The translations under genes and the position numbers were made by a program. The notes under the pieces are model-generated. The model saw only the letters and a program-made list of their open reading frames with translations. It searched no databases and was not told the DNA's origin. DNA of 64,000 nt from Centroscyllium fabricii. Lineage: Eukaryota. The stretch is from contig JBNRSN020000306.1 in NCBI GenBank assembly GCA_051313645.2, positions 434,001 through 498,000 on the forward strand. The letters are read 5' to 3'. Position 1 is the first letter of the stretch, and every line of letters begins with the position of its first letter. Below, one piece after another: positions 6,355 to 64,000 of the stretch.

Positions 6355-6359
6355 TTCTG

Positions 6360-6370: not shown

Positions 6371-6371
6371 C

Positions 6372-28634: not shown

Positions 28635-28653
28635 CCGACTGAGCTATCCGGGC
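28635..28653 (-). pseudogene. tRNA-Lys 5' fragment (19 nt) at the array edge
   Basis: CCGACTGAGCTATCCGGGC on +, followed by the usual upstream flank. Confidence 0.75.
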
Positions 28654-30086
28654 TCTTGATAACCAAAGCTCACACACGTACTGTTCTTGGTTGCAGTGCA
28701 TCATTGCACCTCTTAAAAAATTCAATGTTCTTGTCCATAATCCAGCCTGTGCAGCGCATTTCTCCCACGAATCCCGTTTGACTGCCTCAAACCGCCATCA
28801 CTTCAGAAATATTCTCCCATCCACAAATGACTTGCTCTTTAGCAGCAGCGTCAGTTGTGACACATGCCGTGCCCCAGATATCTGTGTTGGATGTTCAACT
28901 TTACTTCCTATGTATGTTTGACTTGAATGGATCAATTGAGCGCTGGAGATCATAGTTTGATATCGCACAAAGTTAGACGATCCATTCTTACTGCAAATGG
29001 GAAATGCAGCCAACCAAATGGACAGAGAGAGAAGAAGCAAGCCGAGAAAACCAAGGCAAATCGTGTTCACTGTGCGGTAGTGTGACAGTACCAACATTGG
29101 AACAAAGTAAGATATTTTGGAGCATTTTCTAAATAATGGGAAACTATTAACTGTTGAGGAGCAAAGAGATTTCTGAGTCCCGGTTCACAAATCATTATTA
29201 GCTGATAGACATGGAGCAAAATTCACTCGAAAAAGTCGCGCATACTGGACTTTTAGCTACAGTTTAAGCTCGTGGCAGTGAAAGTAAAACTTTTATTCTG
29301 TTTAGATAATTGGTTGCTCGACAGGAGTCACATTTTTCGGATAATGATCTGGTTTTTTAATTAGCAGGATATGATGTGTGTTGTGATCGAAATAGATTTA
29401 ATGGTCCATGTAAATATATCATTAAATGGTTTTGGACAGAAAAAGGTTCAAAAAGACAAATTGAACTGTGATACTTATATCTTTGGAATTATAATATAAG
29501 AAGCAGAAATATGCCCCATCTATAACAAGTACCGGCAAGGCCACACCTGCGGTTCTGTGTTCAGTTCTGGGCATCACAGCTGAAGAAGGTGGTCCTTGGC
29601 TTAAAACTGGAACCCAGATTAACCAGAATGATACAGAGTGTCAACTTACAATGGAAGATTCCACAAACTAGGGTTACATTCCATGGAATTTAGAAGATTA
29701 AATGGTGAATTGATTGACATATTCGCGATATTATGTGGAACTGATAGTGTCGATAGCGAGAAGCGATGTTTGCTGATTGGCCAGTCTGGGAGTCGGGAAC
29801 ATAGCCTCAACCTAAGATCCCAGCATTCCAGGAGTGGAAAGAGTGTGGCAGAAATTTGTAACACACATCAGGAAACAACCGTTAAAGCTGGGTCGATTGT
29901 CAATCTTGAGATTGAGAGATGTTTGTTAACCAAAGGTATTAATTTGGAGCCAAAAGCGTTCCATCACAGATTTAATTGGGATGGCAGTGCGGTTCGAGGG
30001 GTTAAACGGCCTCCTCCTGTTGTTATTTTCAGTGTTAAATAATCAAAGTACAAATGCAGAGATGACAATCTTAATTTAAAGGTAAT

Positions 30087-30145
30087 CCCCGAACAGGAAT
30101 TTGAACCCTGGAACACTGATTCACTACCGACGGACATATCCGGGC
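30087..30145 (-). pseudogene. tRNA-Lys pseudogene with anticodon arm largely deleted
   Basis: CCCGAACAGGAATTTGAACCCTGG...CTACCGACGGACATATCCGGGC, ~59 nt. Confidence 0.8.
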
Positions 30146-30424
30146 TTTTAATAGCTAAAACTCACAATCGGACTGTCATTGGCTGCAGTGCATCATTGCT
30201 CCTCCTACAAATTCCTGTGGAATTTCAATAGAAGAAGCAGAAATATGCCCCATCTATACAAAGCACAGGAGAGACCACACCTGCGGTACTGTGTTCAGTT
30301 CTGGGCTTCACACCTGAGGAAGGTCGATAGCGAGAAGCGATGTTTGATGATTGACCTGCCCGGGAGCCGGGAACATAAATCATCGTTAAAGGATGCAGAG
30401 ACGACAATCTCCGTTTAAAAGCAG

Positions 30425-30497
30425 GGCCCGAACAGGGACTTGAACCCTGGACCCTCAGATTAAAAGTCTGATGCTCTACTGACTGAGCTATCCGGGT
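30425..30497 (-). tRNA. tRNA-Lys(TTT) variant, probably impaired (G1A, G18A, G73C)
   Basis: 73-nt match to the array consensus with three changes. Confidence 0.7.
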
Positions 30498-32199
30498 TCT
30501 TGCTAACAAAAGCTCATAATCGTACTGTCATTGGCTGCAGTGCATCATTGCACCTCCTACAAATTCAATTTTCTTGACCATAATCCAGCCTGTGCAGCAC
30601 ATTTAACCCACGAATCTAGATTGACTGCCTCAAACCGCCATCACTTCAGAAATATTCTCCCTTCCACAAATGACTTGCTCTTTAGCAGCAGCGTCAGTTT
30701 TCACAAATGCCGTGCCCCAGATATCTGTGTTGGATCTTCAACTTTTCTTCTTATATATGTTTGACTTGAATGGATCAATAGAGCGCTGGAGATCGTAGTT
30801 TTATATCGCACAAAGTTAGACGATCGATTCTTACTGCAAATGGGAAATACAGGGAACCAAATGGACAGAGAGAGAAGAAGCTAGCAGAGAAAACGAAGGC
30901 AAATCGTGTTCACTGTGAGCTAGTGTGATACCACCCACTTTGGAACAAAGTAAGATATTTCGGAGTATTTTCTAAATAATGGGAAGTTATTAACTGTTGA
31001 GGAGCAAAGAGATTTCTGAGTCCCGGTTCACAAATCATTATTAGCTGGTAGACATGGAGGAAAATACATTCGAAAAATACGCGCATACGGGACATTTAGC
31101 TACAGTTGAATCTCCTGGTAGTAAAGGTCAAATTTTTATCCTGGTTCGAAAATTGTTTGCTCGAAAAGAGACACATTTTTCGGATAATGATCTGGTAATT
31201 TAATTGGCAGGATATTATGAGTGTTGACTCTGAGCGATCTCTTTTCGGGCTTCAACAATTTACCGATTTTTTTACGACTTATTGATGGGATTGAGAAGCT
31301 CCCATGATAGATTGAGGATAAAAAAATGAAAGGCGGCATTAGAAGCAGTTTAGATGGGAGCAATACATTTGTCAAACTATTCGTAGATTGATTGAAAGGG
31401 CAAATCCTTTGCAAATTGATTTAAATATGATCAAGTGTGACGTCGTCCACTTCGGATCTGAAAAGGGGCGTCTAGTACACACTCCTTATAATGTTAAGAT
31501 GGAAAAAGTTGTGATCCGTAGTTTAAATGGTCCATGTACAAATATCATTAAATGGTCATGGACAGAAAAGATTCAAAAGACTATTTGAAAGGTGATATGT
31601 TTCTCTGTGGAATTTCAATAGAAGAAGCAGAAATATGCCCCATCTATACAAAGCACAGGAGAGACCACACCTGCGGTACTGTGTACAGTTCTGGGCTTCA
31701 AACCTGAGGAAGGTGGTCGTTGGCATAAAGGTGGAGCCTAGGTTTTCCAGAATGATACAGAGTGTCAACTTCCAAAGGAAGATTCCATAATCTAAGGTTA
31801 TATTACCTGGAATTTAGAAGATTAAATGGGGAATTGATGGAAGTATTCATGATATTATGTGGAACTGATCGTGTCGATAGCGAGAAGCGATGTTTGATGA
31901 TTGACCTGCCCGGGAGCCGGGAACATAGCCTCAAACTTAGATACATGAATTGCAGGAGTGGAGTGAGTGTGACAGAAATTTCTAACACACTTCAGCAAAC
32001 AACCCTTGAAGCTGGGTCAATTGTCAGTCTTGAGATTGAGAGATGTTTGTTAACCAAATGCATCAATGGAGCGTTCCAGCACAGAATTAATTAAATGGCA
32101 GAGCGGCTCGAGGGGTTAAAAAGCCTCACCCTGTTGTTATTTTCATCGTTAAAGGATCAGAGCACGGATGCAGATACGACAATCTCAGTTTAAATGCAG

Positions 32200-32272
32200 C
32201 GCCCGAACAGGGACTTGAACCCTGGACCCTCAGATTAAAAGTCTGATGCTTTACTGACTGAGCTATCCGGGC
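32200..32272 (-). tRNA. tRNA-Lys(TTT) variant (G18A, G22A; terminator reduced to T3)
   Basis: D-arm/A-box changes relative to consensus. Confidence 0.7.
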
Positions 32273-32697
32273 TTGCTAACCAAAGCTCACAATCGTTCTG
32301 TCATTGGCTGCAGTGCATCATTGCACCTCCTACAAATTCAATTTTCTTGCCCATAATCCAGCCTGTGCAGTGCATTTCTCCCACGAATCTAGATTGACGG
32401 CCTCAAACCGCCATCACTTCAGAAATATTCTCCCTTCCACAAATGACTTGCTCTCTTTAGCAGCAGCGTTAATTTTAACAAATGCCGTGCCCCAGATATC
32501 TGTGTTCGAACTTCCACATTTCTTCCTATGTATGTTTGACTTGAATGGATCAATAGAGCGCTGGAGATCGTAGTTTGATATCGCACAAAGTTAGACGATC
32601 GATTCTTACTGGAAATGGCATATACAGGGAACCAAATGGACAGAGAGAGTAGAAGCAAGCCGAGAAAACCAAGGCAAATCGTGTTCACTGTGAGCTA

Positions 32698-33124
32698 ACA
32701 TAGAAACATAGAAACATAGAAAATAGGTGCAGGAGTAGACCATTCGGTCCGTCGAGCCTGCACCGCCATTCAACACGTTCATGGCTGAACACAAGAACAC
32801 AACACAAGAACACAAGAACAGAAGAAACAAGAACACAGGAACACAAGAACACAAGAACCCCAGAAATACCAGCAGGAGTAGGCCAATCGGCCCCCCGAGC
32901 CCGCCCCCTCACCCATCCAGATCATTGCTGATCCTACCCTAACCTTCGTACCACTATCACCCTTCTCCCACCCAAAGAACCGTGTGATCTCCTGGGAGAG
33001 GCGAAAAACCGGATAAAAACCCAGGTCCAATTTGGGAAAATAAATCCGGGAAATTCCTCTCCGACCCCAATCCAGGCGATCGAAACTTGTCCAGGAGATC
33101 ACTCAGGTCTTACTATACTAACCA
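32698..33124 (-). mobile_element. ~427-bp composite retroposon insert in an array unit
   Basis: Absent from most units; two 3' tails (TTCTATGT)n and (TCTTGTGT)n; TA on both sides. Confidence 0.85.
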
Positions 33125-34403
33125 TAGTGTGATACCACCCACTTTGGAACAAAGTAAGATGTTTCGGAGTATTTTCTAAATAATGGGAAGTTATTAACTG
33201 TTGAGGAGCAAAGAGATTTCTGAGTCCCGGTTCACAAATCATTATTAGCTGGTAGACATGGAGCAAAATACATTCGAAAAATACGCGCATACGGGACTTT
33301 TAGCTACAGTTGAATCTCGTGGTAGTAAAGGTCACATTTTTATCCTGGTTCGAAAATTGTTTGCTCGACAAGAGACACATTTTTCGGATAATGATCTGGT
33401 AATTTAATTGGCAGGATATTATGAGTGTTGACTCTGAGCGATCTCTTTTCGGGCCTCAACAATTTACCGATTGTTTTACGACATATTGATGGGATTGAGA
33501 AGCTCCCATGATAGATTGAGGATAAAAAAATTAAAGGCGGCATTAGAAGCAGTTTAGATGGGAGCAATAAATTTGTCAAAATATTCATAGATTGATTGAA
33601 AGGGCAAATCCTTTGCAAATTGATTTAAATATTATCAAGTGTGACGTCATCCACTTCGGATCTGAAAAGGGGCGTCTAGTACACACTCGTTATAATGTTA
33701 AGATGGAAAAAGTTGTGATCCGTAGTCTAAATGGACCATGTACAAATATCATTAAATGGTCATGGACAGAAAAGATTCAAAAGACTATTTGAAAGGTGAT
33801 ATGTTTCTCTGTGGAATTTCAATAGAAAAAGCAGAAATATGCCCCATCTATACAAAGCACAGGAGAGACCACACCTGCGGTACTGTGTTCAGTTCTGGGC
33901 TTCAAACCTGAGGAAGGTGGTCGTTGGCATAAAGGTGGAGCCTAGGTTTACCAGAATGATACAGAGTGTCAACTTCCAAAGGAAGATTGCATAATCTAAG
34001 GTTATATTACCTGGAATTTAGAAGATTAAATGGGGAATTGATTGAAGTATTCACGATATTATGTGGAACTGATCGTGTCGATAGCGAGAAGCGATGTTTG
34101 ATGATTGACCTGCCCGGGAGCCAGGAACATAGCCTCAAACTTAAATACATGAATTGCAGGAGTGGAGTGAGTGTGACAGAAATTTCTAACACACTTCAGC
34201 AAACAACCCTTGAAGCTGGGTCAATTGTCATTCTTGAGATTGAGAGATGTTTGTTAACCAAATGCATCAATGGAGCGTTCCAGCACAGAATTAATTAAAT
34301 GGCAGAGCGGCTCGAGGTGTTAAAAAGCCTCACCCTGTTGTTATTTTCATTGTTAAAGGATCAGAGCACGGATGCAGAGACGACAATCTCAGTTTAAAAG
34401 CAG

Positions 34404-34476
34404 CGCCCGAAGAGGTACTTGAACCCTGGGCCCTCAGATTAAAAGTCTGATGCTTTACTAACTGAGCTATCCGGGC
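34404..34476 (-). pseudogene. tRNA-Lys(TTT) likely pseudogene (6 changes incl. C61A, G65C, G18A)
   Basis: T-stem and D-arm disrupted. Confidence 0.75.
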
Positions 34477-36177
34477 TTGCTAACCAAAGCTCACAATCGT
34501 TCTGTCATTGGCTGCAGTGCATCATTGCACCTCCGACAAATTCAATTTTCTTGCCCATAATCCAGCCTGTGCAGCGCATTTCTCCCACGAAACTAGATTG
34601 ACTGCCTCAAACCGCCAACACTTCAGAAATATTCTCCCTTCCACAAATGATTTGCTCTTTAGCAGCAGCGTCAGTTTTCACAAATGCCGTGCCCCAGATA
34701 TCTGAGTTGGATCTTCAACTTTTCTTCCTATGTATGTTTGACTTGAATGGATCAATAGAGCGCTGGAGATCGTAGTTTGATATCGCACAAAGTTAGTCGA
34801 TCGATTCTTACTGCAAATGGGAAATACAGGGAACCAAATGGACAGAGAGAGAAGAAGCAAGCCGAGAAAACCAAGGCAAATCGAGTTCACTGTGCGCTAG
34901 TGTGATACCACCCACTTTGGAACAAAGTAAGTTATTTCGGAGTATTTTCTAAATAATGGGAAGTTATTAACTGTTGAGGAGCAAAGAGATTTCTGAGTCC
35001 CGGTTCACAAATCATTATTAGCTGGTAGACATGGAGGAAAGCACATTCGAAAAATACGCGCATACGGGACATTTAGCTACAGTTGAATCTCGTGGTAGTA
35101 ATGGTCACATTTTTATCCTGGTTCGAAAATTGTTTGCTCGACAAGAGACACATTTTTCGGATAATGATCTGGTTATTTAATTGGCAGGATATTATGAGTG
35201 TTGACTCTGAGCGATCTCTTTTCGGGCCTCAACAATTTACCGATTTTTTTACGACTTATTGATGGGATTGAGAAGCTCCCATGATATATTGAGGATAAAA
35301 AAATGAAAGGCGGCATTAGAAAGAGTTTAGATGGGAGCAATACATTTGTCAAACTATTCATAGATTGATTGAAAGGGCAAATCCTTTGCAAATTGATTTA
35401 AATATGACCAAGTGTGACGTCATCCACTTCGGATCTGAAAAGGGGCGTCTAGTACACACTCGTTATAATGTTAAGATGGAAAAAGTTGTGATCCGTAGTC
35501 TAAATGGTCCATGTACAAATATCATTAAATGGTCATGGACAGAAAAGATTCAAAAGACTATTTAAAAAGGTGATATGTTTCTCTGTGGAATTTCAATAGA
35601 AGAAGCAGTAATATGCCCCATCTACACAAAGCACAGGAGAGACCACACCTGCGGTACTGTGTTCAGTTCTGGGCTTCACAACTGAGGATGGTGATCGATG
35701 GCATAAAGGTGGAGCCTAGGTTTACCAGAATGATACAGAGTGTCAACTTCCAATGGAAGATGGCATAATCTAGGGTTATATTACCTGGAATTTAGAAGAT
35801 TAAATGGGGAATTGATGGAAGTATTCACGATATTATGTGGAACTGATCGTGTCGAAAGCGAGAGGCGATGTTTGATGATTGACATGCCCGGGAGCCGGGA
35901 ACATAGCCTCAAACATAGATACATGAATTGCAGGAGTGGAGTGAGTGTGACAGAAATTTCTAACACACTTCAGCAAACAACCCTTGAAGCTGGGTCAATT
36001 GTCAATCTTGAGATTGAGAGATGTTTGTCAAACAAATGCATCAATGGAGCGTTCCAGCACAGATTTAATTAAATCGCAGAGCGGCTCGAGGGGTTAAAAA
36101 GCCTCATCCTATTGTTATTTTCATCTTTAAAGGATCAGAGCACGGATGCAGAGACGACAATCTCCGTTTAAAAGCAG

Positions 36178-36250
36178 CGCCGGAACAGGGACTTGAGCCC
36201 TGGAACCTCAGATTAAAAGTCTGATGCTCTACCGACTGAGCTATCCGGAT
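36178..36250 (-). pseudogene. tRNA-Lys(TTT) likely pseudogene (G1A, C2T, G46T, T54C, G69C)
   Basis: Acceptor stem and B box altered. Confidence 0.75.
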
Positions 36251-37942: not shown

Positions 37943-38015
37943 CGCCCGAACAGGGACTTGAACCCTGGACCCTCAGATTAAAAGTCTGATGCTCTACCGA
38001 CTGAGCTACCCGGGC
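37943..38015 (-). tRNA. tRNA-Lys(TTT), A7G variant
   Basis: One change giving a G7:U66 pair; T4 terminator present. Confidence 0.88.
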
Positions 38016-38440
38016 TCTTGCCAACCAAATCTCGCAATCGGACTGTCATTGGCTGCAGTGCATCATTGCAACTCCTGCAAATTCAATTTTCTTGCCCATA
38101 ATCCAGCCTGTGCGGCGCATTTCTCCCACGAATCTAGATTGACGGCCTCAAACCGCCATCACTTCAGAAATATTCTCCCTTCCACAAATGACTTGCTCTT
38201 TAGCAGCAGCGTTAATTTTTACAAATGCCGTGCCCCTGATATCTGTGTTGGAACTTCCACATTTCTTCCTATGTATGTTTGACTTGAATGGATCAATAGA
38301 GCGCTGGAGATCGTAGTTTGATATCGCACAAAGTTAGACGATCGATTCTTACTGGAAATGGCATATACAGGGAACCAAATGGACAGGGAGAGTAGAAGCA
38401 AGCCGAGAAAACCAAGGCAAATCGTGTTCACTGTGAGCTA

Positions 38441-38866
38441 ACATAGAAACATAGAAACATAGAAAATAGGTGCAGGAGTAGACCATTCGGTCCGTCGAGC
38501 CTGCACCGCCATTCAACACGTTCATGGCTGAACACAAGAACACAACACAAGAACACAAGAACAGAAGAAACAAGAACACAGGAACACAAGAACACAAGAA
38601 CCCCAGAAATACGAGCAAGAGTAGGCCAAACGGCCCCCCAGCCCGCCCCCTCACTCATCCAGATCATTGCTGATCCTACCCTAACCTTCGTACCACTATC
38701 ACCCTTCTCGCACCCAAAGAACCGTGTGATCTCCTGGGAGAGGCGAAAAACCGGATAAAAACCCAGGTCCAATTTGGGAAAATAAATCTGGGAAATTCCT
38801 CTCCGACCCCAATCCACGCGATCGAAACTTGTCCAGGAGATCACTCAGGTCTTACTATACTAACCA
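38441..38866 (-). mobile_element. Second copy of the ~426-bp insert
   Basis: Same sequence and same unit position as 32698-33124. Confidence 0.85.
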
Positions 38867-40136
38867 TAGTGTGATACCACCCACTTTGGAACAAAGTAAG
38901 ATATTTCGGAGTATTTTCTAAATAATGGGAAGTTATTAACTGTTGAGGAGCAAAGAGATTTCTGAGTCCCGGTTCACAAATCATTATTAGCTGGTAGACA
39001 TGGAGCAAAATACATTCGAAAAATACGCGCATACGGGGCTTTTAGCTACAGTTGAATCTCGTGGTAGTAAAGGTCACATTTTTATCCTGGTTCGAAAATT
39101 GTTTGCTCGACAAGAGACACATTTTTCGGATAATGATCTGGTAATTTAATTGGCAGGATATTATGAGTGGTGACTCTGAGCGATCTCTTTTCGGGCCTCA
39201 ACAATTTACCGATTGTTTTACGACATATTGATGGGATTGAGAAGCTCCCATGATAGATTGAGGATAAAAAAATTAAAGGCGGCATTAGAAGCAGTTTAGA
39301 TGGGAGCAATACATTTGTTAAAATATTCATAGATTGATTGAAAGGGCAAATCCTTTGCAAATTGATTTAAATATTATCAAGTGTGACGTCATCCACTTCG
39401 GATCTGAAAAGGGGCGTCTAGTACACACTCGTTATAATGTTAAGATGGAAAAAGTTGTGATCCGTAGTCTAAATGGTCCATGTACAAATATCATTAAATG
39501 GTCATGGACAGAAAAGATTCAAAAGTCTATTTGAAATGTGATATGTTTCTCTGTGGAATTTCAATAGAAGAAGCAGAAATATGCCCCATCTATACAAAGC
39601 ACAGGAGAGACCACACCTGCGGTAATGTGTTCAGTTCTGGGCTTCACACCTGAGGAAGGTGGTCGTTGGCATAAAGGTGGAGCCTAGGTTTACCAGAATG
39701 ATACAGAGTGTCAACGTCCAATGGAAGATTGCATAATCTAGGGTTATATTACCTGGAATTTAGATGATTAAATGGGGAATTGATGGAAGTATTCACGATA
39801 TTATGTGGAACTGATCGTGTGGATAGCGAGAAGCGATGTTTGATGATTGACATGCCCGGGAGCCGGGAACATAGCCTCAAACATAGATACATGAATTGCA
39901 GGAGTGGAGTGAGTGTGACAGAAATTTCTAACACACTTCAGCAAACAACCCTTGAAGCTGGGTCAATTGTCAGTCTTGAGATTGAGAGATGTTTGTTAAA
40001 CAAATGCATCAATGGAGCGTTCCAGCACAGATTTAATTAAATGGCAGAGCGGCTAAAAAGCCTCATCCTGTTGTTATTTTCATCGTTAAATGATCAGAGC
40101 ACGGATGCAGAGACGACAATCTCCGTTTAAAAGCAG

Positions 40137-40209
40137 CGCCCGAACAGGGACTTGAACCCTGGACCCTCAGATTAAAAGTCTGATGCTCTACCGACTGAGC
40201 AACCCGGGC
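40137..40209 (-). tRNA. tRNA-Lys(TTT), A7G and A9T variant
   Basis: Two changes from consensus. Confidence 0.8.
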
Positions 40210-40634
40210 TCTTGCTAACCAAATCTCGCAATCGGACTGTCATTGGCTGCAGTGCATCATTGCCACTCCTGCAAATTCAATTTTCTTGCCCATAATCCAG
40301 CCTGTGCGGCGCATTTCTCCCACGAATCTAGATTGACGGCCTCAAACCGCCATCACTTCAGAAATATTCTCCCTTCCACAAATGACTTGCTCTTTAGCAG
40401 CAGCGTTAATTTTTACAAATGCCGTGCCCCTGATATCTGTGTTGGAACTTCCACATTTCTTCCTATGTATGTTTGACTTGAATGGATCAATAGAACGCTG
40501 GAGATCGTAGTTTGATATCGCACAAAGTTAGACGATCGATTCTTACTGGAAATTGCATATACAGGGAACCAAATGGACAGAGAGAGTAGAAGCAAGCCTA
40601 GAAAATCAAGGCAAATCGTGTTCACTGTGAGCTA

Positions 40635-41060
40635 ACATAGAAACATAGAAACATAGAAAATAGGTGCAGGAGTAGACCATTCGGTCCGTCGAGCCTGCAC
40701 CGCCATTCAACACGTTCATGGCTGAACACAAGAACACAACACAAGAACACAAGAACAGAAGAAACAAGAACACAGGAACACAAGAACACAAGAACCCCAG
40801 AAATACGAGCAAGAGTAGGCCAATCGGCCCCCCAGCCCGCCCCCTCACTCATCCAGATCATTGCTGATCCTACCCTAACCTTCGTACCACTATCACCCTT
40901 CTCCCACCCAAAGAACCGTGTGATCTCCTGGGAGAGGCTAAAAACCGGATAAAAACCCAGGTCCAATTTGGGAAAATAAATCCGGGAAATTCCTCTCCGA
41001 CCCCAATCCAGGCGATCGAAACTTGTCCAGGAGATCACTCAGGTCTTACTATACTAACCA
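40635..41060 (-). mobile_element. Third copy of the ~426-bp insert
   Basis: Same sequence and same unit position. Confidence 0.85.
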
Positions 41061-42338: not shown

Positions 42339-42411
42339 CGCCCGAACAGGGACTTGAACCCTGGACCCTCAGATTAAAAGTCTGACGCTCTACCGACTGA
42401 GCTATCCGGGC
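42339..42411 (-). tRNA. tRNA-Lys(TTT), A26G variant
   Basis: One change; T4 terminator present. Confidence 0.9.
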
Positions 42412-49422: not shown

Positions 49423-49495
49423 CGCCCGAACAGGGACTTGAACCCTGGACCCTCAGATTAAAAGTCTGATGCTCTACCGACTGAGCTATCCGGGC
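49423..49495 (-). tRNA. tRNA-Lys(TTT), consensus
   Basis: Identical 73-mer; T4 terminator. Confidence 0.97.
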
Positions 49496-51190: not shown

Positions 51191-51263
51191 CGCCCGAACA
51201 GGGACTTGAACCCTGGACCCTCAGATTAAAAGTCTGATGCTCTACCGACTGAGCTATCCGGGC
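51191..51263 (-). tRNA. tRNA-Lys(TTT), consensus
   Basis: Identical 73-mer; T4 terminator. Confidence 0.97.
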
Positions 51264-52958
51264 TCTTGCAAACCAAAGCTCACAATCGTACTGTCATTGG
51301 CTGCAGTGCATCATTGCACCTCCTACAAATTCAATTTTCTTGCCCATAATCCAGCCTGTGCAGCGCATTTCATTCACGAATCTAGATTGACTGCCTCAAA
51401 CCGCCATCACTTCAGAAATATTCTCCCTTCCACAAATGACTTGCTCTTTAGCAGCAGCGTCAGTTTTCACAAATGCCGTGCCCCAGATATCTGTGTTGGA
51501 TCTTCAACTTTTCTTCCTATGTATGTTTGACTTGAATGGATCAGTAGAGCGCTGGAGATCGTAGTTTTATATCGCACAAAGTTAGACGATCGATTCTTAC
51601 TGCAAATGGGAAATACAGGGAACCAAATGGACAGAGAGAGAAGAAGCAAGCCGAGAAAACCAAGGCAAATCGTGTTCACTGTGAGCTAGTGTGATACCAC
51701 CCACTTTGGAACAAAGTAAGATATTTCGGAGTATTTTCTAAATAATGGGATGTTATTAACTGTTGAGGAGCAAAGAGAATTCTGAGTCCCGGTTCACAAA
51801 TCATTATTAGCTGGTAGAAATGGAGGAAAATACATTCGAAAAATACGCGCATACGGGACGTTTAGCTACAGTTGAATCTCATGGTAGTAAAGGTCACATT
51901 TTTATCCTGGTTCGAAAATTGTTTGCTCGACAAGAGACACATTTTTCGGATAATGATCTGGTAATTTAATTGGCAGGATATTATGAGTGTTGACTCTGAG
52001 CGATCTCTTTTCGGGCCTCAACAATTTACCGATTTTTTTACGACTTATTGATGGGATTGAGAAGCTCCCATGATAGATTGAGGATAAAAAAATTAAAGGC
52101 GGCATTAGAAGCAGTTTAGATGGGAGCAATAAAGTTGTCAAAATATTCATAGATTGATTGAAAGGGCAAATCCTTTGCAAATTGATTTAAATATTATCAA
52201 GTGTGACGTCATCCACTTCGGATCTGAAAAGGGGCGTCTAGTACACACTCGTTATAATGTTAAGATGGAAAAAGTTGTGATCCGTAGTCTAAATGGTCCA
52301 TGTACAAATATCATTAAATGTTCATGGACAGAAAAGATTCAAAAGACTATTTGAAAGGTGATATGTTTCTCTGTGGAATTTCAATAGAAGAAGCAGTAAT
52401 ATGCCCCATCTACACAAAGCACATGAGAGACCACACCTGCGGTACTGTGTTCAGTTCTGGGCTTCACAACTGAGGAAGGTGGTCGTTGGCATAAAGGTGG
52501 AGCCTATGTTTACCACAATGATACAGAGTGTCAACGTCCAATGGAAGATTGCATAATCTAGGGTTATACTACCTGGAATTTAGAAGATTAAATGGGGAAT
52601 TGATGGAAGTATTCACGATATTATGTGGAACTGATCGTGTCGATAGCGAGAAGCGATGTTTGATCTGCCCGGGAGCCGGGAACATAGCCTCAAACATAGA
52701 TACATGAATTGCAGGAGTGGAGTGAGTGTGACAGAAATTTCTAACACACTTCAGCAAACAACCCTTGAAGCTGGGTCAATTGTCAGTCTTGAGATTGAGA
52801 GATGTTTGTCAAACAAATGCATCAATGGAGCGTTCCAGCACAGATTTAATTAAATGGCAGAGCGGCTCGAGGGGTTAAAAAGCCTCATCCTGTTGTTATT
52901 TTCATCGTTAAAGGATCAGAGCACGGATGCAGAGACGACAATCCCCGTTTAAAAGCAG

Positions 52959-53031
52959 CGCCCGAACAGGGACTTGAACCCTGGACCCTCAGATTAAAAG
53001 TCTGATGCTCTACCGACTGAGCTATCCGGGC
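52959..53031 (-). tRNA. tRNA-Lys(TTT), consensus
   Basis: Identical 73-mer; T4 terminator. Confidence 0.97.
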
Positions 53032-54722
53032 TCTTGCAAACCAAAGCTCACAATCGTACTGTCATTGGCTGCAGTGCATCATTGCACCTCCTACAAATTC
53101 AATTTTCTTGCCCATAATCCAGCCTGTGCAGCGCATTTCATTCACGAATCTAGATTGACTGCCTCAAACCGCCATCACTTCAGAAATATTCTCCCTTCCA
53201 CAAATGACTTGCTCTTTAGCAGCAGCGTCAGTTTTCACAAATGCCGTGCCCCAGATATCTGTGTTGGATCTTCAACTTTTCTTCCTATGTATGTTTGACT
53301 TGAATGGATCAGTAGAGCGCTGGAGATCGTAGTTTTATATCGCACAAAGTTAGACGATCGATTCTTACTGCAAATGGGAAATACAGGGAACCAAATGGAC
53401 AGAGAGAGAAGAAGCAAGCCGAGAAAACCAAGGCAAATCGTGTTCACTGTGCGCTAGTGTGATACCACCCACTTTAAGATATTTCGGAGTATTTTCTAAA
53501 TAATGGGAAGTTATTAACTGTTGAGGAGCAAAGAGATTTCTGAGTCCCGGTTCACAAATCATTATTAGCTGGTAGAAATGGAGGAAAATACATTCGAAAA
53601 ATACGCGCATACGGGACATTTAGCTACAGTTGAATCTCGTGGTAGTAAAGGTCACATTTTTATCCTGGTTGAAAATTGTTTGCTCGACAAGAGACACATT
53701 TTTCGGATAATGATCTGGTAATTTAATTGGCAGGATATTATGAGTGTTGACTCTGAGCGATCTCTTTTCGGGCCTCAACAATTTACCGATTTTTTTACGA
53801 CTTATTGATGGGATTGAGAAGCTCCCATGATAGATTGAGGATAAAAAAATTAAAGGCGGCATTAGAAGCAGTTTACATGGGAGCAATAAATTTGTCAAAA
53901 TATTCATAGATTGATTGAAAGGGCAAATCCTTTGCAAATTGTTTTAAATATTATCAAGTGTGACGTCATCCACTTCGGATCTGAAAAGGGGCGTCTAGTA
54001 CACACTCGTTATAATGTTAAGATGGGAAAATTTGTGATCCGTAGTCTAAATGGTCCATGTACAAATATCATTGAATGGTCATGGACAGAAAAGATTCAAA
54101 AGACTATTTGAAAGGTGATATGTTTCTCTGTGGAATTTCAATAGAAGAAGCAGTAATATGCCCCATCTACACAAAGCACAGGAGAGACCACACCTGCGGT
54201 ACTGTGTTCAGTTCTGGGCTTCACACCTGAGGAAGGTGGTCGTTGGCATAAAGGTGGAGCCTAGGTTTACCGCAATGATACAGAGTGTCAACGTCCAATG
54301 GAAGATTGCATAATCTAGGGTTATATTACCTGGAATTTAGAAGATTAAATGGGGAATTGATGGAAGTATTCACGATATTATGTGGAACTGATCGTGTCGA
54401 TAGCGAGAAGCGATGTTTGATGATTGACCTGCCCGGGAGCCGGGAACATAGCCTCAAACATAGATACATGAATTGCAGGAGTGGAGTGAGTGTGACAGAA
54501 ATTTCTAACACACTTCAGCAAACAACCCTTGAAGCTGGGTCAATTGTCAGTCTTGAGATTGAGAGATGTTTGTCAAACAAATGCATCAATGGAGCGTTCC
54601 AGCACAGATTTAATTAAATGGCAGAGCGGCTCGAGGGGTTAAAAAGCCTCATCCTGTTGATATTTTCATCGTTAAAGGATCAGAGCACGGATGCAGAGAC
54701 GACAATCCCCGTTTGAAAGCAG

Positions 54723-54795
54723 CGCCCGAACAGGGACTTGAACCCTGGACCCTCAGATTAAAAGTCTGATGCTCTACCGACTGAGCTATCCGGGC
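54723..54795 (-). tRNA. tRNA-Lys(TTT), consensus
   Basis: Identical 73-mer; trailer TTTC. Confidence 0.96.
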
Positions 54796-56497
54796 TCTTG
54801 CTAACCAAAGCTCACAATCGTACTGTCATTGGCTGCAGTGCATCATTGCACCTCCTACAAATTCAATTTTCTTGCCCATAATCCAGCCTGTGCAGCGCAT
54901 TTCATTCACGAATCTAGATTGACTGCCTCAAACCGCCATCACTTCAGAAATATTCTCCCTTCCACAAATAACTTGCTCTTTAGCAGCAGCGTCAGTTTTC
55001 ACAAATGCCGTGCCCCAGATATCTGTGTTGGATCTTCAACTTTTCTTCCTATGTATGTTTGACTTGAATGGATCAGTAGAGCGCTGGAGATCGTAGTTTT
55101 ATATCGCACAAAGTTAGACGATCGATTCTTACTGCAAATGGGAAATACAGGGAACCAAATGGACAGAGAGAGAAGAAGCAAGCCGAGAAAACCATGGCAA
55201 ATCGTGTTCACTGTGCGCTAGTGTGATACCACCCACTTTGGAACAAAGTAAGATATTTCGGAGTATTTTCTAAATAATGGGAAGTTATTAACTGTTGAGG
55301 AGCAAAGAGATTTCTGAGTCCCGGTTCACAAATCATTATTAGCTGGTAGAAATGGAGGAAAATACATTCGAAAAATACGCGCATACGGGACGTTTAGCTA
55401 CAGTTGAATCTCATGGTAGTAAAGGTCACATTTTTATCCTGGTTCGAAAATTGTTTGCTCGACAAGAGACACATTTTTCGGATAATGATCTGGTAATTTA
55501 ATTGGCAGGATATTATGAGTGTTGACTCTGAGCGATCTCTTTTCGGGCCACAATAATTTACCGATTTTTTTACGACTTATTGATGTGATTGAGAAGCTCC
55601 CATGATAGATTGAGGATAAAAAAATTAAAGGCGGCATTAGAAGCAGTTTAGATGGGAGTAATAAATTTGTCAAAATATTCATAGATTGATTGAAAGGGCA
55701 AATCCTTTGCAAATTGATTTAAATATTATCAAGTGTGACGTCATCCACTTCGGATCTGAAAAGGGGCGTCTAGTACACACTCGTTATAATGTTAAGATGG
55801 AAAAAGTTGTGATCCGTAGTCTAAATGGTCCATGTACAAATATCATTAAATGGTCATGGACAGAAAAGATTCAAAATACTATTTGAAAGGTGATATGTTT
55901 CTCTGTGGAATTTCAATAGAAGAAGCAGTAATATGCCCCATCTACACAAAGCACAGGAGAGACCACACCTGCGGTACTGTGTTCAGTTCTGGGCTTCACA
56001 ACTGAGGAAGGTGGTCGTTGGCATAAAGGTGGAGCCTATGTTTACCACAATGATACAGAGTGTCAACGTCCAATGGAAGATTGCATAATCTAGGGTTATA
56101 TTACCTGGAATTTAGAAGATTAAATGGGGAATTGATGGAAGTATTCACGATATTATGTGGAACTGATCGTGTCGATAGCGAGAAGCGATGTTTGATGATT
56201 GACCTGCCCGGGAGCCGGGAACATAGCCTCAAACATAGATACATGAATTGCAGGAGTGGAGTGAGTGTGACAGAAATTTCTATCACACTTCAGCAAACAA
56301 CCCTTGAAGCTGGGTCAATTGTCAGTCTTGAGATTGAGAGATGTTTGTCAAACAAATGCATCAATGGAGCGTTCCAGCACAGATTTAATTAAATGGCAGA
56401 GCGGCTCGAGGGGTTAAAAAGCCTCATCCTGTTGTTATTTTCAACGTTAAAGGATCAGAGCACGGATGCAGAGACGACAATCCCCGTTTGAAAGCAG

Positions 56498-56570
56498 CGC
56501 CCGAACAGGGACTTGAACCCTGGACCCTCAGATTAAAAGTCTGATGCTCTACCGACTGAGCTATCCGGGC
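56498..56570 (-). tRNA. tRNA-Lys(TTT), consensus
   Basis: Identical 73-mer; trailer TTTC. Confidence 0.96.
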
Positions 56571-57214: not shown

Positions 57215-57765
57215 TGTAATGGTTCGGTTTCGAACCCAATAGCAGAACACCGGAGACAGTCTATAGTAAATGGGTGCTTTAATCCTAATTATAACAACAG
57301 TGCATATAAAGATATCAAAACACATAGAGTATAATCCACAATGCACAATAAAGCAACAGTAGTCCAAGATACCGATAGCCGGTAAGCCAGAGTTCAAATG
57401 TCCAAACCCCAATCCTTGGTGGTTGAAAAAGCAAGGCCCAAAAGTCTGGTGCTGCAGTACTTCCAATAATCACAGTTCAGGAAAGGACACTCCTTGATCG
57501 GTGTACCAGGTAATCTCACACGGCAGGAACCAGGAATCCAAAACGATTGGAAACGAATACAAATATAACTCCAGAAATAACAGGTAACAGGAAATAACAG
57601 AACTCTTAAACCAGCAGCATAGAAATAACACTCCGACAAAGTCCTAGGGCTAACAGGTGGCTTATATCTAGAATTTAGACCAATCAGATGTGTTACATTA
57701 CAATAGGTGATGATCCAATAATGAACTGCAGCCTAGACATTTAAAGTGACAGTCCACCCATGACA
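57215..57765 (-). repeat. 3' LTR of Gypsy element 2
   Basis: TGTAATGG...CCATGACA on +; only one mismatch to 60280-60830 seen (57451 G vs A). Confidence 0.96.
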
Positions 57766-57842
57766 GAACCCCCCCCTTAAGGGACGCCACCTGACGTCCC
57801 CAAAACCCAATCGCCTACAACCGGGTTGGCGGGGAGAAGGAA

Positions 57843-59340
57843 CTAACAATTTTCGGGTCTCTTGTCAATATCCATCTCCTCATCTGGTGAAACAGAATCA
57901 TCCTGCCCCATTATTTCAGGGCCCTCGTCATCAGATGCCACCCTATCGTCCAGGTCCACCTGACTCAAAATGGTGTCGAAAACCTGTCCAGGTCTCCTAG
58001 GAATCGCCCTCCCCTTTCTCGGTTGACCAGGGTGCTGTTTGCGAAAGTCGGAAATAAGTTTGGGATCCATGATATTCCGAGCAGGGACCCAGGACCTCTC
58101 CTCAGGACCATACCCTTCCCAGTCCACTAGGTACTGAAGTCCCTTTCCTCGGCGACGGGAGTCAAGCAAACGACGGACCGTGTACACTAATCCACCGTCG
58201 AGAATACGAGGAGGTGGAGGGGGTGCGGAAACGGGTACTAAGGCACTCTCCTGAGCAGGCTTTATTCGTGATACGTGGAAAGTGGGATGAACCCTCATGG
58301 ACTTGGGGAGCTTGAGTCATACCGCAGCGGGGTTAATGATCCTTTCAACCACGAACGGTCCGATAAATCTGGGAGCGAGTTTTTTGGACTCCACTTGGAG
58401 AGGCAGATCCTTTGTGGAGAGCCAAACCTTCTGCCCGACCCGATACTCCGGAGCAGTAGAACGACGACGGTTGGCCGAAGCCGAGTATCGATCCGCCGAG
58501 CGAAGCAGCGACATCCGCGCTTGTTCCCATGTCCTGTGGCATCGTTGGATGAAGTCCTGGACGGACGGACAAGATACCTCCTTCTCTAGGTCCGGAAACA
58601 ATGGAGGCTGGAACCCATATGCGCACTGAAAGGGCGAAAGTCCTGTAGCGGAACTAGTCAGCGTGTTGTGCGCATACTCCACCCACAATAGTAATGTGGA
58701 CCAGGAAGAGGGATTTTTGGAGATCATGCACCGAAGTGCCTTCTCCATCTCCTGATTCATCCTCTCCGATTGTCCATTAGACTGGGGATGGAATCCCGAC
58801 GACAGACTGACCTTGGCCCCGATGAGACTGCAGAATTCCCTCCAAAATATCGAAGTAAATTGGGGACCTCGATCAGACACCACATCCACCGGAAGCCCAT
58901 GAAGCCGAAACACGTGCTGCAACATGAGCTCTGCAGTTTCTTTAGCAGAGGGCAGCTTATCCAAGGGTATAAAATGTGCCATCTTGCTAAACCTGTCCAC
59001 CACCGTTAGCACCGTGGTCAGTCCCTTGGATGAGGGTAGTCCTGTGACAAAATCCAGGGCTATGTGAGACCAAGGCCGATGGGGTATAGGCAATGGTTGA
59101 AGCAGGCCAGCAGGTTGCGGCAGTGGACACCGGTCGATCCCCAACTGTGTAACCAGGTCCTTATCAATGATATTAACATCTGCCCCCGAGTCGATAAATA
59201 TGGCAAACTTCCGAGATCCTGATGGCAGAAGAAGTCGAGCCTGGCACAAAGGCCGTGAATTTGAAGAGAGTCTAATCGGAGTTCGGCTCACCAGTACGAC
59301 TCCCTCTACTGGTGAGTCTGGTCTTTTACCGGGCATCCTA
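57843..59340 (-). pseudogene. Deleted pol: protease N-terminus fused in frame to integrase core and chromodomain
   Basis: FIDSGAD...RCPLPQP|[10 protein letters not shown]...LDFVTG...SDRGPQF...[11 protein letters not shown] at 58317-58319, then in-frame [15 protein letters not shown]. Confidence 0.92.
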
Positions 59341-60262
59341 CGACAAAATGGCCGGCCTGACCACAGTATAGGCATAAACCCCTCCTGCGGCGCCGACTGT
59401 GCTCTAATGGCGAAATGCCTGTGCGGCCTAACTGCATGGGTTCGGGAATCCCTGACGTGGCCGAATCTCTGGGCGCCACGAATCTCTCCTGAACCCGTTT
59501 ACCAGGATGATGACCCGTCTCTCCCAATCCTCTCTCACGCTGTCATGCCTGGATCCTTAGATCGATCCTAGTAACCAGACTGATGATCTCATCCAAAGTA
59601 GAAGGGAGATTATGTGATACTAATTCATCCTTGACGTATCCCGCCAATCCATGCAGGAAAACCTCACATTTGGCAGCCATGTTCCAATTGCTCCGACGAG
59701 CCTTGATCCGAAAATCAATGGCATAGTCCACCACCGTCTGATTTCCCTGGTTCATACTCATAAGGCCCTCAGCCGTCTCCACCTCAAAGGCTACCCTGCC
59801 AAAAACTCTTCTCAACTCCTCAGAAAATGTTCTGAAAGAACTGCATGCCGGAGTATCTCTCTCCCACTCGGCAGTACCCCAGAGTCTAGCTCTCCCCGAG
59901 AGATGGTTGATCATAAATGCTACTCTTGCCTTCTCGCTGGCAAAGGTGCGCGGTTGTAGGGAAAACAAAATAGAACAGTTCGTAATGAAGGGGTCGCACT
60001 GTTCTGGTTCACCAGCATAACGCTCTGGTACTCCAACCCGGTGCTCGGGTGTGAAGCTCTGAAGTAGAGACAGGGAAACTGATTCAGCTGTTGAAACAGG
60101 TTCCGGTGTGGAAGAAGTCCCTGCTGGGTTTGCTACAGTGAACGCCCTCATGTCAGAGGTTAGCCGTTCTATTTTAGAGAACAAATCCCCAAAAGCCTGA
60201 CCCTGAAGTGTCAGGACCTCCTCCATGCGCGCCAGACGTCCCGGTGTGTCCGCTGGGTTCAT
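59306..60262 (-). pseudogene. gag of element 2 (start MNPADTP) with one nonsense codon
   Basis: [11 protein letters not shown] at 59543-59545, same frame continues PEPMQLG and [14 protein letters not shown] to a stop at 59306. Confidence 0.9.
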
Positions 60263-60267
60263 GATTG

Positions 60268-60278
60268 GTCGGAGTGTT
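60268..60278 (-). other. Self-priming primer binding site of element 2
   Basis: Minus-strand AACACTCCGAC is the exact complement of LTR 60692-60702, ~25-30 nt downstream of ATATAA (60727-60732). Confidence 0.85.
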
Positions 60279-60279
60279 C

Positions 60280-60830
60280 TGTAATGGTTCGGTTTCGAAC
60301 CCAATAGCAGAACACCGGAGACAGTCTATAGTAAATGGGTGCTTTAATCCTAATTATAACAACAGTGCATATAAAGATATCAAAACACATAGAGTATAAT
60401 CCACAATGCACAATAAAGCAACAGTAGTCCAAGATACCGATAGCCGGTAAGCCAGAGTTCAAATGTCCAAACCCCAATCCTTGGTGGTTGAAAAAGCAAG
60501 GCCCAAAAGTCTGGTACTGCAGTACTTCCAATAATCACAGTTCAGGAAAGGACACTCCTTGATCGGTGTACCAGGTAATCTCACACGGCAGGAACCAGGA
60601 ATCCAAAACGATTGGAAACGAATACAAATATAACTCCAGAAATAACAGGTAACAGGAAATAACAGAACTCTTAAACCAGCAGCATAGAAATAACACTCCG
60701 ACAAAGTCCTAGGGCTAACAGGTGGCTTATATCTAGAATTTAGACCAATCAGATGTGTTACATTACAATAGGTGATGATCCAATAATGAACTGCAGCCTA
60801 GACATTTAAAGTGACAGTCCACCCATGACA
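60280..60830 (-). repeat. 5' LTR of Gypsy element 2
   Basis: Direct repeat of 57215-57765. Confidence 0.96.
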
Positions 60831-61893
60831 TATCCTGGTTCGAAAATTGTTTGCTCGACAAGAGACACATTTTTCGGATAATGATCTGGTAATTTAATTG
60901 GCAGGATATTATGAGTGTTGACTCTGAGCGATCTCTTTTCGGGCCACAACAATTTACCGATTTTTTTACGACTTATTGATGGGATTGAGAAGCTCCCATG
61001 ATAGATTGAGGATAAAAAAATTAAAGGCGGCATTAGAAGCAGTTTAGATGGGAGCAATAAATTTGTCAAAATATTCATAGATTGATTGAAAGGGCAAATC
61101 CTTTGCAAATTGATTTAAATATTATCAAGTGTGACGTCATCCACTTCGGATCTGAAAAGGGGCGTCTAGTACACACTCGTTATAATGTTAAGATGGAAAA
61201 AGTTGTGATCCGTAGTCTAAATGGTCCATGTACAAATATCATTAAATGGTCATGGACAGAAAAGATTCAAAAGACTATTTGAAAGGTGATATGTTTCTCT
61301 GTGGAATTTCAATAGAAGAAGCAGTAATATGCCCCATCTACACAAAGCACAGGAGAGACCACACCTGCGGTACTGTGTTCAGTTCTGGGCTTCACAACTG
61401 AGGAAGGTGGTCGTTGGCATAAAGGTGGAGCCTATGTTTACCACAATGATACAGAGTGTCAACGTCCAATGGAAGATTGCATAATCTAGGGTTATATTAC
61501 CTGGAATTTAGAAGATTAAATGGGGAATTGATGGAAGTATTCACGATATTATGTGGAACTGATCGTGTCGATAGCGAGAAGCGATGTTTGATGATTGACC
61601 TGCCCGGGAGCCGGGAACATAGCCTCAAACATAGATACATGAATTGCAGGAGTGGAGTGAGTGTGACAGAAATTTCTATCACACTTCAGCAAACAACCCT
61701 TGAAGCTGGGTCAATTGTCAGTCTTGAGATTGAGAGATGTTTGTCAAACAAATGCATCAATGGAGCGTTCCAGCACAGATTTAATTAAATGGCAGAGCGG
61801 CTCGAGGGGTTAAAAAGCCTCATCCTGTTGTTATTTTCAACGTTAAAGGATCAGAGCACGGACGCAGAGACGACAATCCCCGTTTAAAAGCAG

Positions 61894-61966
61894 CGCCCGA
61901 ACAGGGACTTGAACCCTGGACCCTCAGATTAAAAGTCTGATGGTCTACCGACTGAGCTATCTGGGC
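61894..61966 (-). tRNA. tRNA-Lys(TTT) variant (G5A, G24C), probably impaired
   Basis: Mismatches in acceptor and D stems. Confidence 0.75.
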
Positions 61967-63660
61967 TCTTGCTAACCAATGCTCACAATCGTACTGTCAT
62001 TGGCTGCAGTGCATCATTGCACCTCCTACAAATTCAATTTTCTTGCCCATAATCCAGCCTGTGCAGTGCATTTCATTCACGAATCTAGATTGACTGCCTC
62101 AAACCGCCATCACTTCAGAAATATTCTGCCTTCCACAAATGACTTGCTCTTTAGCAGCAGCGTCAGTTTTCACAAATGCCGTGCCCCAGATATCTGTGTT
62201 GGATCTTCAACTTTTCTTCCTATGTATGTTTGACTTGAATGGATCAGTAGAGCGCTGGAGATCGTAGTTTTATATCGCACAAAGTTAGACGATCGATTCT
62301 TACTGCAAATGGGAAATACAGGGAACCAAATGGACAGAGAGAGAAGAAGCAAGCCGAGAAAACCAAGGCAAATCGTGTTCACTGTGCGCTAGTGTGATAC
62401 CACCCACTTTGGAACAAAGTAAGATATTTCGGAGTATTTTCTAAATAATGGGAAGTTATTAACTGTTGAGGAGCAAAGAGATTTCTGAGTCCCGGTTCAC
62501 AAATCATTATTAGCTGGTAGAAATGGAGGAAAATACATTCGAAAAATACGCGCATACGGGACATTTAGCTACAGTTGAATCTCGTGGTAGTAAAGGTCAC
62601 ATTTTTATCCTGGTTCGAAAATTGTTTGCTCGACAAGAGACACATTTTTCGGATAATGATCTGGTAATTTAATTGGCAGGATATTATGAGTGTTGACTCT
62701 GAGCGATCTCTTTTCGGGCCTCAACAATTTACCGATTTTTTTACGACTTATTGATGGGATTGAGAAGCTCCCATGATAGATTGAGGATAAAAAAATTAAA
62801 GGCGGCATTAGAAGCAGTTTAGATGGGAGCAATAAATTTGTCAAAATATTCATAGATTGATTGAAAGGGCAAATCCTTTGCAAATTGATTTAAATATTAT
62901 CAAGTGTGACGTCATCCACTTCGGATCTGAAAAGGGGCGTCTAGTACACACTCGTTATAATGTTAAGATGGAAAAAGTTGTTATCCGTAGTCTAAATGGT
63001 CCATGTACAAATATCATTGAATGGTCATGGACAGAAAAGATTCAAAAGACTATTTGAAAGGTGATATGTTTCTCTGTGGAATTTCAATAGAAGAAGCAGT
63101 AATATGCCCCATCTACACAAAGCACAGGAGAGACCACACCTGCGGTACTGTGTTCAGTTCTGGGCTTCACACCTGAGGAAGGTGGTCGTTGGCATAAAGG
63201 TGGAGCCTAGGTTTACCACAATAATAAAGAGTGTCAACGTCCAATGGAAGATTGCATAATCTAGGGTTATATTACCTGGAATTTAGAAGATTAAATGGGG
63301 AATTGATGGAAGTATTCACGATATTATGTTGAACTGATCGTGTCGATAGCGAGAAGCGATGTTTGATGATTGACCTGCCCGGGAGCCGGGAACATAGCCT
63401 CAAACATAGATACATGAATTGCAGGAGTGGAGTGAGTGTGACAGAAATTTCTAACACACTTCAGCAAACAACCCTTGAAGCTGGGTCAATTGTCAGTCTT
63501 GAGATTGAGAGATGTTTGTCAAACAAATGCATCAATGGAGCACAGATTTAATTAAATGGCAGAGCGGCTCGAGGGGTTAAAAAGCCTCATCCTGTTGTTA
63601 TTTTCAACGTTAAAGGATCAGAGCACGGACGCAGAGACGACAATCCCCGTTTAAAAGCAG

Positions 63661-63733
63661 CGCCCGAGCAGGGACTTGAACCCTGGACCCTCAGATTAAA
63701 AGTCTGATGCTCTACCGACTGAGCTATCCGGGC
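63661..63733 (-). tRNA. tRNA-Lys(TTT), T66C variant
   Basis: One acceptor-stem mismatch (A7:C66); T4 terminator. Confidence 0.85.
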
Positions 63734-64000
63734 TCTTGCGAACCAAAGCTCACAATCGTACTGTCATTGGCTGCAGTGCATCATTGCACCTCCTACAAAT
63801 TCAATTTTCTTGCCCATAATCCAGCCTGTGCAGCGCATTTCATTCACGAATCTAGATTGACTGCCTCAAACCGCCATCACTTCAGAAATATTCTCCCTTC
63901 CACAAATGACTTGCTCTTTAGCAGCAGCGTCAGTTTTCACAAATGCCGTGCCCCAGATATCTGTGTTGGATCTTCAACTTTTCTTCCTATGTATGTTTGA

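Follow-up and report, generated by a model that had tools for sequence, protein, structure and literature searches.

Evidence for a likely transcribed tandem array of tRNA-Lys(UUU) genes with a LINE-derived spacer in the shark Centroscyllium fabricii

We analysed a 64,000-nucleotide stretch of the Centroscyllium fabricii genome (assembly GCA_051313645.2, contig JBNRSN020000306.1, here C830, positions 434,001–498,000; "the window") that contains a tandem array of transfer RNA (tRNA) genes for tRNA-Lys(UUU). The sequence suggests, with a probability of about 0.7, that this is a real and likely transcribed array, in which single units undergo birth-and-death turnover while selection has acted over the long run on the majority gene sequence. 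The gene lineage is likely to have been transcribed in the germ line and not to be just satellite DNA, because four stray copies elsewhere in the 7.2-Gb genome look like DNA copies of unprocessed RNA. Tandem tRNA arrays themselves are already known; what appears to be new here are the fossil transcripts and a putative second terminator derived from a long interspersed element (LINE). A literature search, with most subscription journals and bioRxiv supplements outside it, found nothing on this array or on shark chimeras of precursor tRNA (pre-tRNA) and short interspersed element (SINE).

ARAGORN placed 17 tRNA-Lys(ttt) genes on the minus strand of the window between positions 30425 and 63733, and Rfam recognized each of them (48.8–74.1 bits; gathering score 29). 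An earlier note on this DNA had reported 17 full-length tRNA-Lys(TTT) genes, one per ~1.77-kb unit; the count and the spacing hold, but only 8 of the 17 have the exact majority sequence. The others comprise three with tolerated changes, two with broken stem pairs and four left-edge copies with changes at invariant positions of the A or B box, the last four being likely pseudogenes. Where uninterrupted, units measure 1764–1776 bp. The note had looked to the flanking assembly for the full array, and with 199 kb added downstream of the window this was indeed recovered: 43 genes over ~86 kb, one per unit and head-to-tail, with a right end at about window coordinate 150,100 (C830 base 584,133). No tRNA was found in the 100 kb upstream of the window. 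The parts of the array within the window are as follows.

28528–64000, no strand assigned: tandem array of ~1.77-kb tRNA-Lys(UUU) units, running beyond the window to C830 base 584133
28528–30423, no strand assigned: decayed and rearranged left edge, with unit pieces 78–96% alike and two tRNA fragments (28637–28653 and 30086–30145)
30425–36250, minus strand: four edge tRNA copies (30425, 32200, 34404, 36178), altered at invariant positions 18, 54, 61 or 73
37943–42411, minus strand: three tRNA copies (37943, 40137, 42339) that keep all stems despite changes
44103–56570, minus strand: eight identical 73-nt tRNA-Lys(UUU) genes (44103, 45879, 47655, 49423, 51191, 52959, 54723, 56498), Rfam 74.1 bits
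61894–63733, minus strand: two tRNA copies (61894, 63661) with broken stem pairs

Across the whole array, 22 of the 43 genes are identical, 5 carry tolerated changes and 16 are damaged (10 by a broken stem pair, 5 by a change at an invariant position and 1 by an indel); all 21 stem pairs and 15 invariant positions are intact in 27 copies. The exact 73-mer, presumably the mammalian tRNA-Lys3 sequence, occurs 45 times in the genome. Apart from the 22 occurrences in the array, at least 23 lie outside it, and seven other contigs carry the sequence; these counts may be lower bounds, and 40 of 394 looser candidates were scored. At the right edge (C830:556285–584133), inversions and insertions disrupt the array, and older variants of the unit survive there, among them a 12-bp piece gone from the core.

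On the tRNA strand, each unit (41% GC) consists of a non-LINE 5′ flank of about 180–250 bp, the 73-nt gene, a run of four T (T4) at +5, and an antisense LINE remnant comprising the 3′ tail and the end of open reading frame (ORF) 2. The interval between the genes at 45879 and 47655 provides an example, in which the two T runs are read as terminators for RNA polymerase III (Pol III).

45952–46130, minus strand: non-LINE 5′ flank, 70–77% alike in tRNA-Lys genes on four other contigs (C800, C1544, C2 and C700)
45952–45971, minus strand: inner 5′ flank (−1 to −20), where the unit varies most, with a putative start site at about −3/−4
46157–46602, plus strand: first remnant of LINE ORF2, from the end of its reverse-transcriptase region
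46555–47612, plus strand: second LINE remnant (3′ part of ORF2 and 3′ tail), tail-to-tail with the next tRNA
47647–47650, minus strand: first Pol III terminator by sequence, T4 at +5 of gene 47655
47573–47577, minus strand: T5 run at +78 inside the LINE 3′-tail remnant, a putative second terminator

The spacer thus consists of two overlapping LINE 3′ pieces (unit positions 280–725 and 678–1735). It matches LINE ORF2 sequences of the same genome with E values down to 1e-27 (tblastn/tblastx), and its 3′ tail aligns with genomic LINE copies. ORFs of related LINEs match RVT_1 (reverse transcriptase) and Exo_endo_phos (endonuclease of the AP type), and a 4.7-kb LINE relative within the array has an ORF1 with a GDSL/SGNH esterase; an esterase-bearing ORF1 is a mark of CR1-like elements. 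Judged from these ORF domains, the LINE content of the spacer is in line with CR1. The note had described the spacer as decayed CR1 sequence, which agrees with the ORF2 matches but overlooks both the two-piece structure and the non-LINE stretch 5′ of the tRNA. Its landmarks (KCDVIHFG, RPHLRYCVQFW, LEFRRLNGEL and the 3′-tail motif) do recur in many units in the order given. The tRNA is antisense, as claimed; the 22-nt tail motif occurs exactly at 12 places, ~85 bp off the tRNA 3′ end.

A run of at least four T at +4/+5 is present in 37 of the 43 genes. The six genes that have lost it, five of which lie inside the window, reach the T5 at +78 first. This T5 has no counterpart in intact LINE tails, and aligned copies from C800 and C1544 have at most T3. 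Except for this second T run, the spacer is probably a passenger.

One ground for likely transcription lies in copies outside the array. The first to be noticed was a dispersed exact gene on contig C745 that has the array's trailer. Genome-wide, a trailer pattern gave 46 matches, 41 within the array and five elsewhere, all five of which were inspected. Those on C1200 and C744 represent the same insertion, found twice (97% alike over 5 kb), leaving four independent insertions. All five copies share 3–4 leader bases with the array and have chance identity beyond (10–16 of 56–57 positions); leaders of vertebrate pre-tRNAs are reported to have two to five bases (PMC6130373). Their trailers extend for 49, 82, 177 (the insertion present twice) and 216 nt with 91–94% identity, and no unit sequence resumes behind them. 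Those of 49, 177 and 216 nt each run into the head of a SINE, which is full length, has a CR1-type (LINE-type) tail and may resemble HE1. The copy with the 82-nt trailer lacks a SINE; it stops in the T run at +78, within the CR1 tail. Flanking repeats of 7 bp and 5 bp accompany two of the four insertions, and none is convincing in the other two.

Random DNA breakage was considered as a source of these copies and rejected, as it would not begin four times at −3/−4; the 3′ ends, different in all four, speak against a single master copy behind the insertions. We infer that the off-array copies are retrocopied read-through pre-tRNAs, which would place such precursors in germ cells or early embryos. 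Another copy, the fifth (C1488, L076), begins at +1 and has a 7-nt trailer followed by the SINE; no source can be assigned to it. A tRNA-Ser(GCT) whose short trailer ends in T and continues into a SINE head (L092, C1:336910401–336911600) is likely another pre-tRNA/SINE chimera. A junction pattern combining the trailer start with the SINE head gave 30 matches; the 20 inspected were mostly chance matches and included no tRNA-Lys and one tRNA-Ser. Given this tRNA-Ser copy of the same build, pre-tRNA/SINE chimeras are apparently a habit of the genome.

The array is no echo of the assembly process, because no two of its 33 uninterrupted units are identical (0 of 528 pairs; median 27 mismatches). 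Moreover, the 263 kb spanning the array contain no N, and the spacer is covered almost letter for letter by contigs of two sequencing runs from two studies (X3 and X6). Out of 30 spacer bins, X6 covers all 30, X3 26, X2 16 and X1 9, the patches in X1 and X2 being largely other LINE copies; the comparison applies to the spacer only, and one run may be the assembly's own source. When differences in the run contigs were checked, 11 of 14 proved to be alleles also found in core units and three did not; the core likewise lacks a fifteenth letter, which comes from X3.

Units differ in how far they have drifted. Core units lie 0.4–1.3% from the column majority, and most edge units 1.5–6%. A block of three units is repeated with 2, 2 and 9 mismatches. 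Such block copying, together with a homogeneous core, is expected from unequal crossing-over in tandem arrays, and the C830 array probably spread by unequal exchange in which blocks of units were duplicated together. Single copies would decay and be replaced, a birth-and-death process with concerted turnover, while selection may have preserved the majority tRNA sequence of the lineage in the long term.

We next consider where the unit came from. Clusters on C800 (43.6–46.05 Mb) and C1544, sampled over 210 kb and 40 kb, respectively, share both tRNA and spacer with C830, with 96.6% identity in the tRNA and 76% in the spacer (27 alignments). The unit is older than the C830 array, because these sister arrays share the spacer at 76%. 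The higher identity of the tRNA than of the spacer speaks for long-run selection on the gene, as do the presence of one and the same 73-mer on seven other contigs and the stem branch, which is 0.074 long and has zero tRNA changes (P = 0.005). Among the 57 sampled sister copies, 5 are exact and 46 damaged. In a tree of 5′ flanks, built from 88 of 100 copies after dropping 12 that lack the flank, all C830 flanks form one branch (support 100/100). The nearest ~175 bp of the flank also occur in a cluster on C2 and at a single gene on C700, where they are 70–77% alike. Because this flank is shared among C800, C1544, C2 and C700, the family must have been copied as DNA, and the unit is no SINE. No single-copy parent with the whole spacer was found among 23 scored of 1983 candidates or among six dispersed exact copies. 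The C830 array is, on these comparisons, apparently the latest wave of an old multicopy family that multiplied at the DNA level several times. This history contradicts the earlier idea that one lone tRNA gene was captured together with flanking debris.

The relatives have features of their own. The C800 region contains three-unit tRNA-Lys higher-order repeats (7–10 kb) nested in blocks that recur every 200–470 kb; two of its three unit types have fixed stem-breaking changes, and at three cluster ends a damaged copy reads as tRNA-Asn(ATT) through an anticodon change. The C2 cluster (5.0–5.5 Mb), a third one for tRNA-Lys(UUU), contains the exact gene 12 times. Its flanks form a family of their own, and a hypervariable stretch lies immediately upstream of the gene. 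On C710 (L046:7759–8577), an 820-bp piece of the spacer (87%) lies without tRNA-Lys 6 kb from a tRNA-Val(CAC).

Sequence variation offers a further mark of transcription. Active tRNA genes are reported to have a highly variable inner 5′ flank, with a peak at −12 to −15, and about twofold rare variants in the gene body, yet long-term conservation (PMC6130373). We counted variants among 30 young core units in 31 alignments (median 29 deep), with each allele counted once. Nine variants fall within positions −1 to −20; compared with the spacer, where the rate is 0.087 per base, this is a 5.2-fold excess (p = 8e-5), and none of 1513 spacer windows reaches 9. The tRNA body has 15 variants, 2.4-fold over the spacer (p = 0.002); for +1 to +82 the count is 14, reached by 13 of 1451 windows. 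The excesses in flank and gene both persist without CpG sites. Among 15 lineage representatives, identity is 0.58 at −17 to −10, 0.78–0.82 upstream of that and 0.945 in the gene. On C800, type A units, with fixed stem breaks (9 copies), have no variants at −20 to −1, whereas the near-exact type C (9 copies) has two, at −11/−12, although these numbers are small. As a gauge of methylation, CpG decay in the core spacer points both ways: 3 of 88 CpG sites are mutated versus 28 of 526 other C/G sites, which is no excess, but a count by cells yields a ratio of 2.6, like that of SINEs. An upstream ZNF143/Staf site was also considered at −60 to −41, a stretch that reaches 0.925 identity between lineages, and was rejected: the CCCR core of such sites (PMC3082894) is absent, and the stretch is not kept in the C2 family.

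Several observations weigh against a selected, transcribed array. Two of the four stray insertions have no target-site repeat. The stray copies are 6–9% diverged and branch just outside today's units, and two of them keep the 12-bp piece that is held by only two right-edge units; they therefore record an older state of the lineage and not today's core. By its design, the trailer pattern detects read-through copies only and is silent on how frequent read-through was. With 46 of 57 sister copies damaged, amplification evidently needs no function. When all 39 regular units are included, the flank excess drops to only 1.8-fold, against a background inflated by a 427-bp insertion and edge copies, and the variant tests treat related units as independent beyond the once-per-allele counting. 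Moreover, within the array the tRNA is no better conserved than the spacer (it varies more), and singletons, although more frequent in it (11 of 15 vs 71 of 133), show no significant excess (p = 0.18).

A rival explanation is a neutrally amplified repeat that is now largely silenced, whose ancestor was transcribed and whose genes look intact only through the youth of the core. The 16 damaged copies among 43, the lack of per-copy conservation, the tolerance of two LTR (long terminal repeat) elements, one LINE and one retroposon piece within the array, the sister arrays made up mostly of pseudogenes and the retrocopies that predate the core all fit this explanation, as does the report of silent, methylated tRNA clusters in Arabidopsis (PMC7544208). 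Yet the flank excess is recent, as it was measured among core units less than ~1% apart, and on C800 the upstream variants are seen in the near-exact type C and not in the broken type A, small as those numbers are; we consider a silenced repeat unlikely. At the opposite end, the array could have been selected as a store of gene dosage that serves, for instance, yolky oocytes or the early embryo, with copy number tuned to AAA decoding; this would be compatible with the transcribed array that we favor. About half of all exact genomic copies (22 of 45) are in the array, exact copies are far more frequent there (22 of 43) than in the sampled sister copies (5 of 57), germ-line retrocopies exist and sharks are reported to have many tRNA loci (10.1101/2025.06.08.657570). 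However, a younger array gives a higher intact share without selection, and at least 23 exact copies are available elsewhere; we regard tuned dosage as quite improbable. The earlier note had spoken of a single-isoacceptor dosage locus; it is indeed a single-isoacceptor array, amplified as a unit and probably functional, but dosage is unproven, given 16 of 43 and 46 of 57 copies damaged and a tRNA that varies more than its spacer. There is very little to be said for an assembly artefact, given units that all differ, a gapless 263 kb and a spacer found in other runs. An equally slight chance attaches to the unit being a tRNA-Lys-headed SINE or retroposed tRNA–LINE chimera turned satellite. Precedents are tRNA-Lys-headed SINEs with CR1 tails, as in the tortoise Pol III/SINE (PMC3747384), and antisense tRNA–LINE chimeras in mammals (10.1101/2025.02.02.635956). 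But the tRNA here is full length, antisense and tail-to-tail with the LINE piece, and an RNA copy would lack the 5′ flank, ~175 bp of which recur at genes of four other contigs.

For the transcribed array, the following course of events may be proposed. Transcription would start at about −3/−4, driven by the internal A and B boxes, and would mostly stop at +5. Occasional read-through would enter the antisense LINE remnant and stop at +78 or beyond. Such precursors would have been reverse transcribed by LINE machinery at least four times and inserted elsewhere, three of them after joining to SINE RNA. A more specific version is possible but doubtful: that point changes turned a dead LINE tail into a working second Pol III terminator, and that leaky pre-tRNAs were joined to a SINE again and again in the germ line. 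If it is true, the sites at which Pol III starts and stops at one identifiable locus are preserved in the genome as a fossil map, together with several independent first steps toward a tRNA-Lys-headed composite SINE, and some of the chimeras may work as new dispersed tRNA genes.

Four window units carry insertions, of two kinds:

32698–33124, minus strand: 427-bp piece of a retroposon with a tail of short repeats; it was copied along with its unit into 38441–38866 and 40635–41060 (4–7 mismatches between copies)
57215–60830, minus strand: internally deleted Ty3/gypsy chromodomain LTR retrotransposon with a 5-bp target duplication and LTRs identical at 548 of 549 positions

Three later insertions occupy one unit each: this 3.6-kb gypsy element, the 4.7-kb LINE and a 10.9-kb LTR element (C830:505977–516871). 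The last, which we call young, has 1.75-kb LTRs that are 99.2% alike; its ORFs (L012:167–1651 and 1655–6274) encode a gag with zinc knuckle and, in an open frame of 1540 aa, protease, reverse transcriptase, two RNase H-type domains and integrase. A doubled RNase H is unusual in plain gypsy elements. Outside the array, a second gypsy element of the same kind as that at 57215–60830, with reverse-transcriptase remnants, lies at window positions 1935–6519 (minus strand), and an 84-bp tandem repeat (9.6 copies, 85% matches) at 21460–22259. Positions 9791–10825 (minus strand) hold a single-exon frame for a rhodopsin-family G protein-coupled receptor (7tm_1). Its relatives up- and downstream on C830 and on C710 suggest a dispersed tandem receptor family on small contigs.

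Sharks have unusually many tRNA genes, and it is hard to tell whether the extra copies work, since mature tRNAs of the same sequence do not reveal their locus of origin; this array can be followed through the trailer of its unit. Flank hypermutation and retrocopied precursors are two sequence-only read-outs that point to germ-line transcription and could be applied to any tRNA array. The contrast with the damage-rich sister arrays provides a direct test of dosage selection versus neutral turnover, and the chimeras show a possible route to new SINE heads and dispersed tRNA genes.

Among known systems, the human variable-number tandem repeat of tRNA genes in 1q23.3 (PMC4041453) bears out the note's statement that tandem tRNA arrays exist in other vertebrates. 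As reported there, it resembles the C830 array in having kilobase head-to-tail tRNA units in tens of copies (9–43 per allele in humans), a tRNA that is conserved and a spacer that is not, and retroelement pieces within the unit. It differs in its 7.3-kb GC-rich unit with five tRNAs of four kinds and a conserved CTCF site, whereas the shark unit is 1.77 kb long, 41% GC and mostly LINE in its spacer, with one tRNA. Copy-number variation is demonstrated for the human array and was suggested by the note for the shark one. Transposon-filled spacers have also been argued for in ribosomal DNA (10.1101/2023.02.20.529178). The clustered tRNA genes of Arabidopsis (PMC7544208) are likewise tandem extra copies beside a dispersed set, but they are reported to be silent and methylated, whereas the C830 array bears sequence marks suggestive of transcription. 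A survey of elasmobranchs (10.1101/2025.06.08.657570) describes unusually many, clustered tRNA loci in sharks and rays, counts of the kind that a C830-type array would yield; its accessible part gives counts and positions, to which the C830 array adds unit structure, spacer origin and indirect signs of expression.

The stray copies have counterparts as well. Like U6–L1-type and tRNA–L1 chimeras (10.1101/2025.02.02.635956), they place a Pol III RNA 5′ of a retroposon and were apparently inserted as one piece. The mammalian tRNA–L1 cases described in that work are mostly half tRNAs in antisense orientation joined to L1, whereas the shark copies appear to contain a full pre-tRNA, with leader and long trailer, in sense orientation and joined to a full-length SINE with a CR1-type tail. 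Finally, long 3′ trailers resulting from leaky termination have been seen in human cells (PMC3141230) and are similar to those proposed here, which are deduced from genomic fossils and would end at a downstream T run within a LINE remnant.

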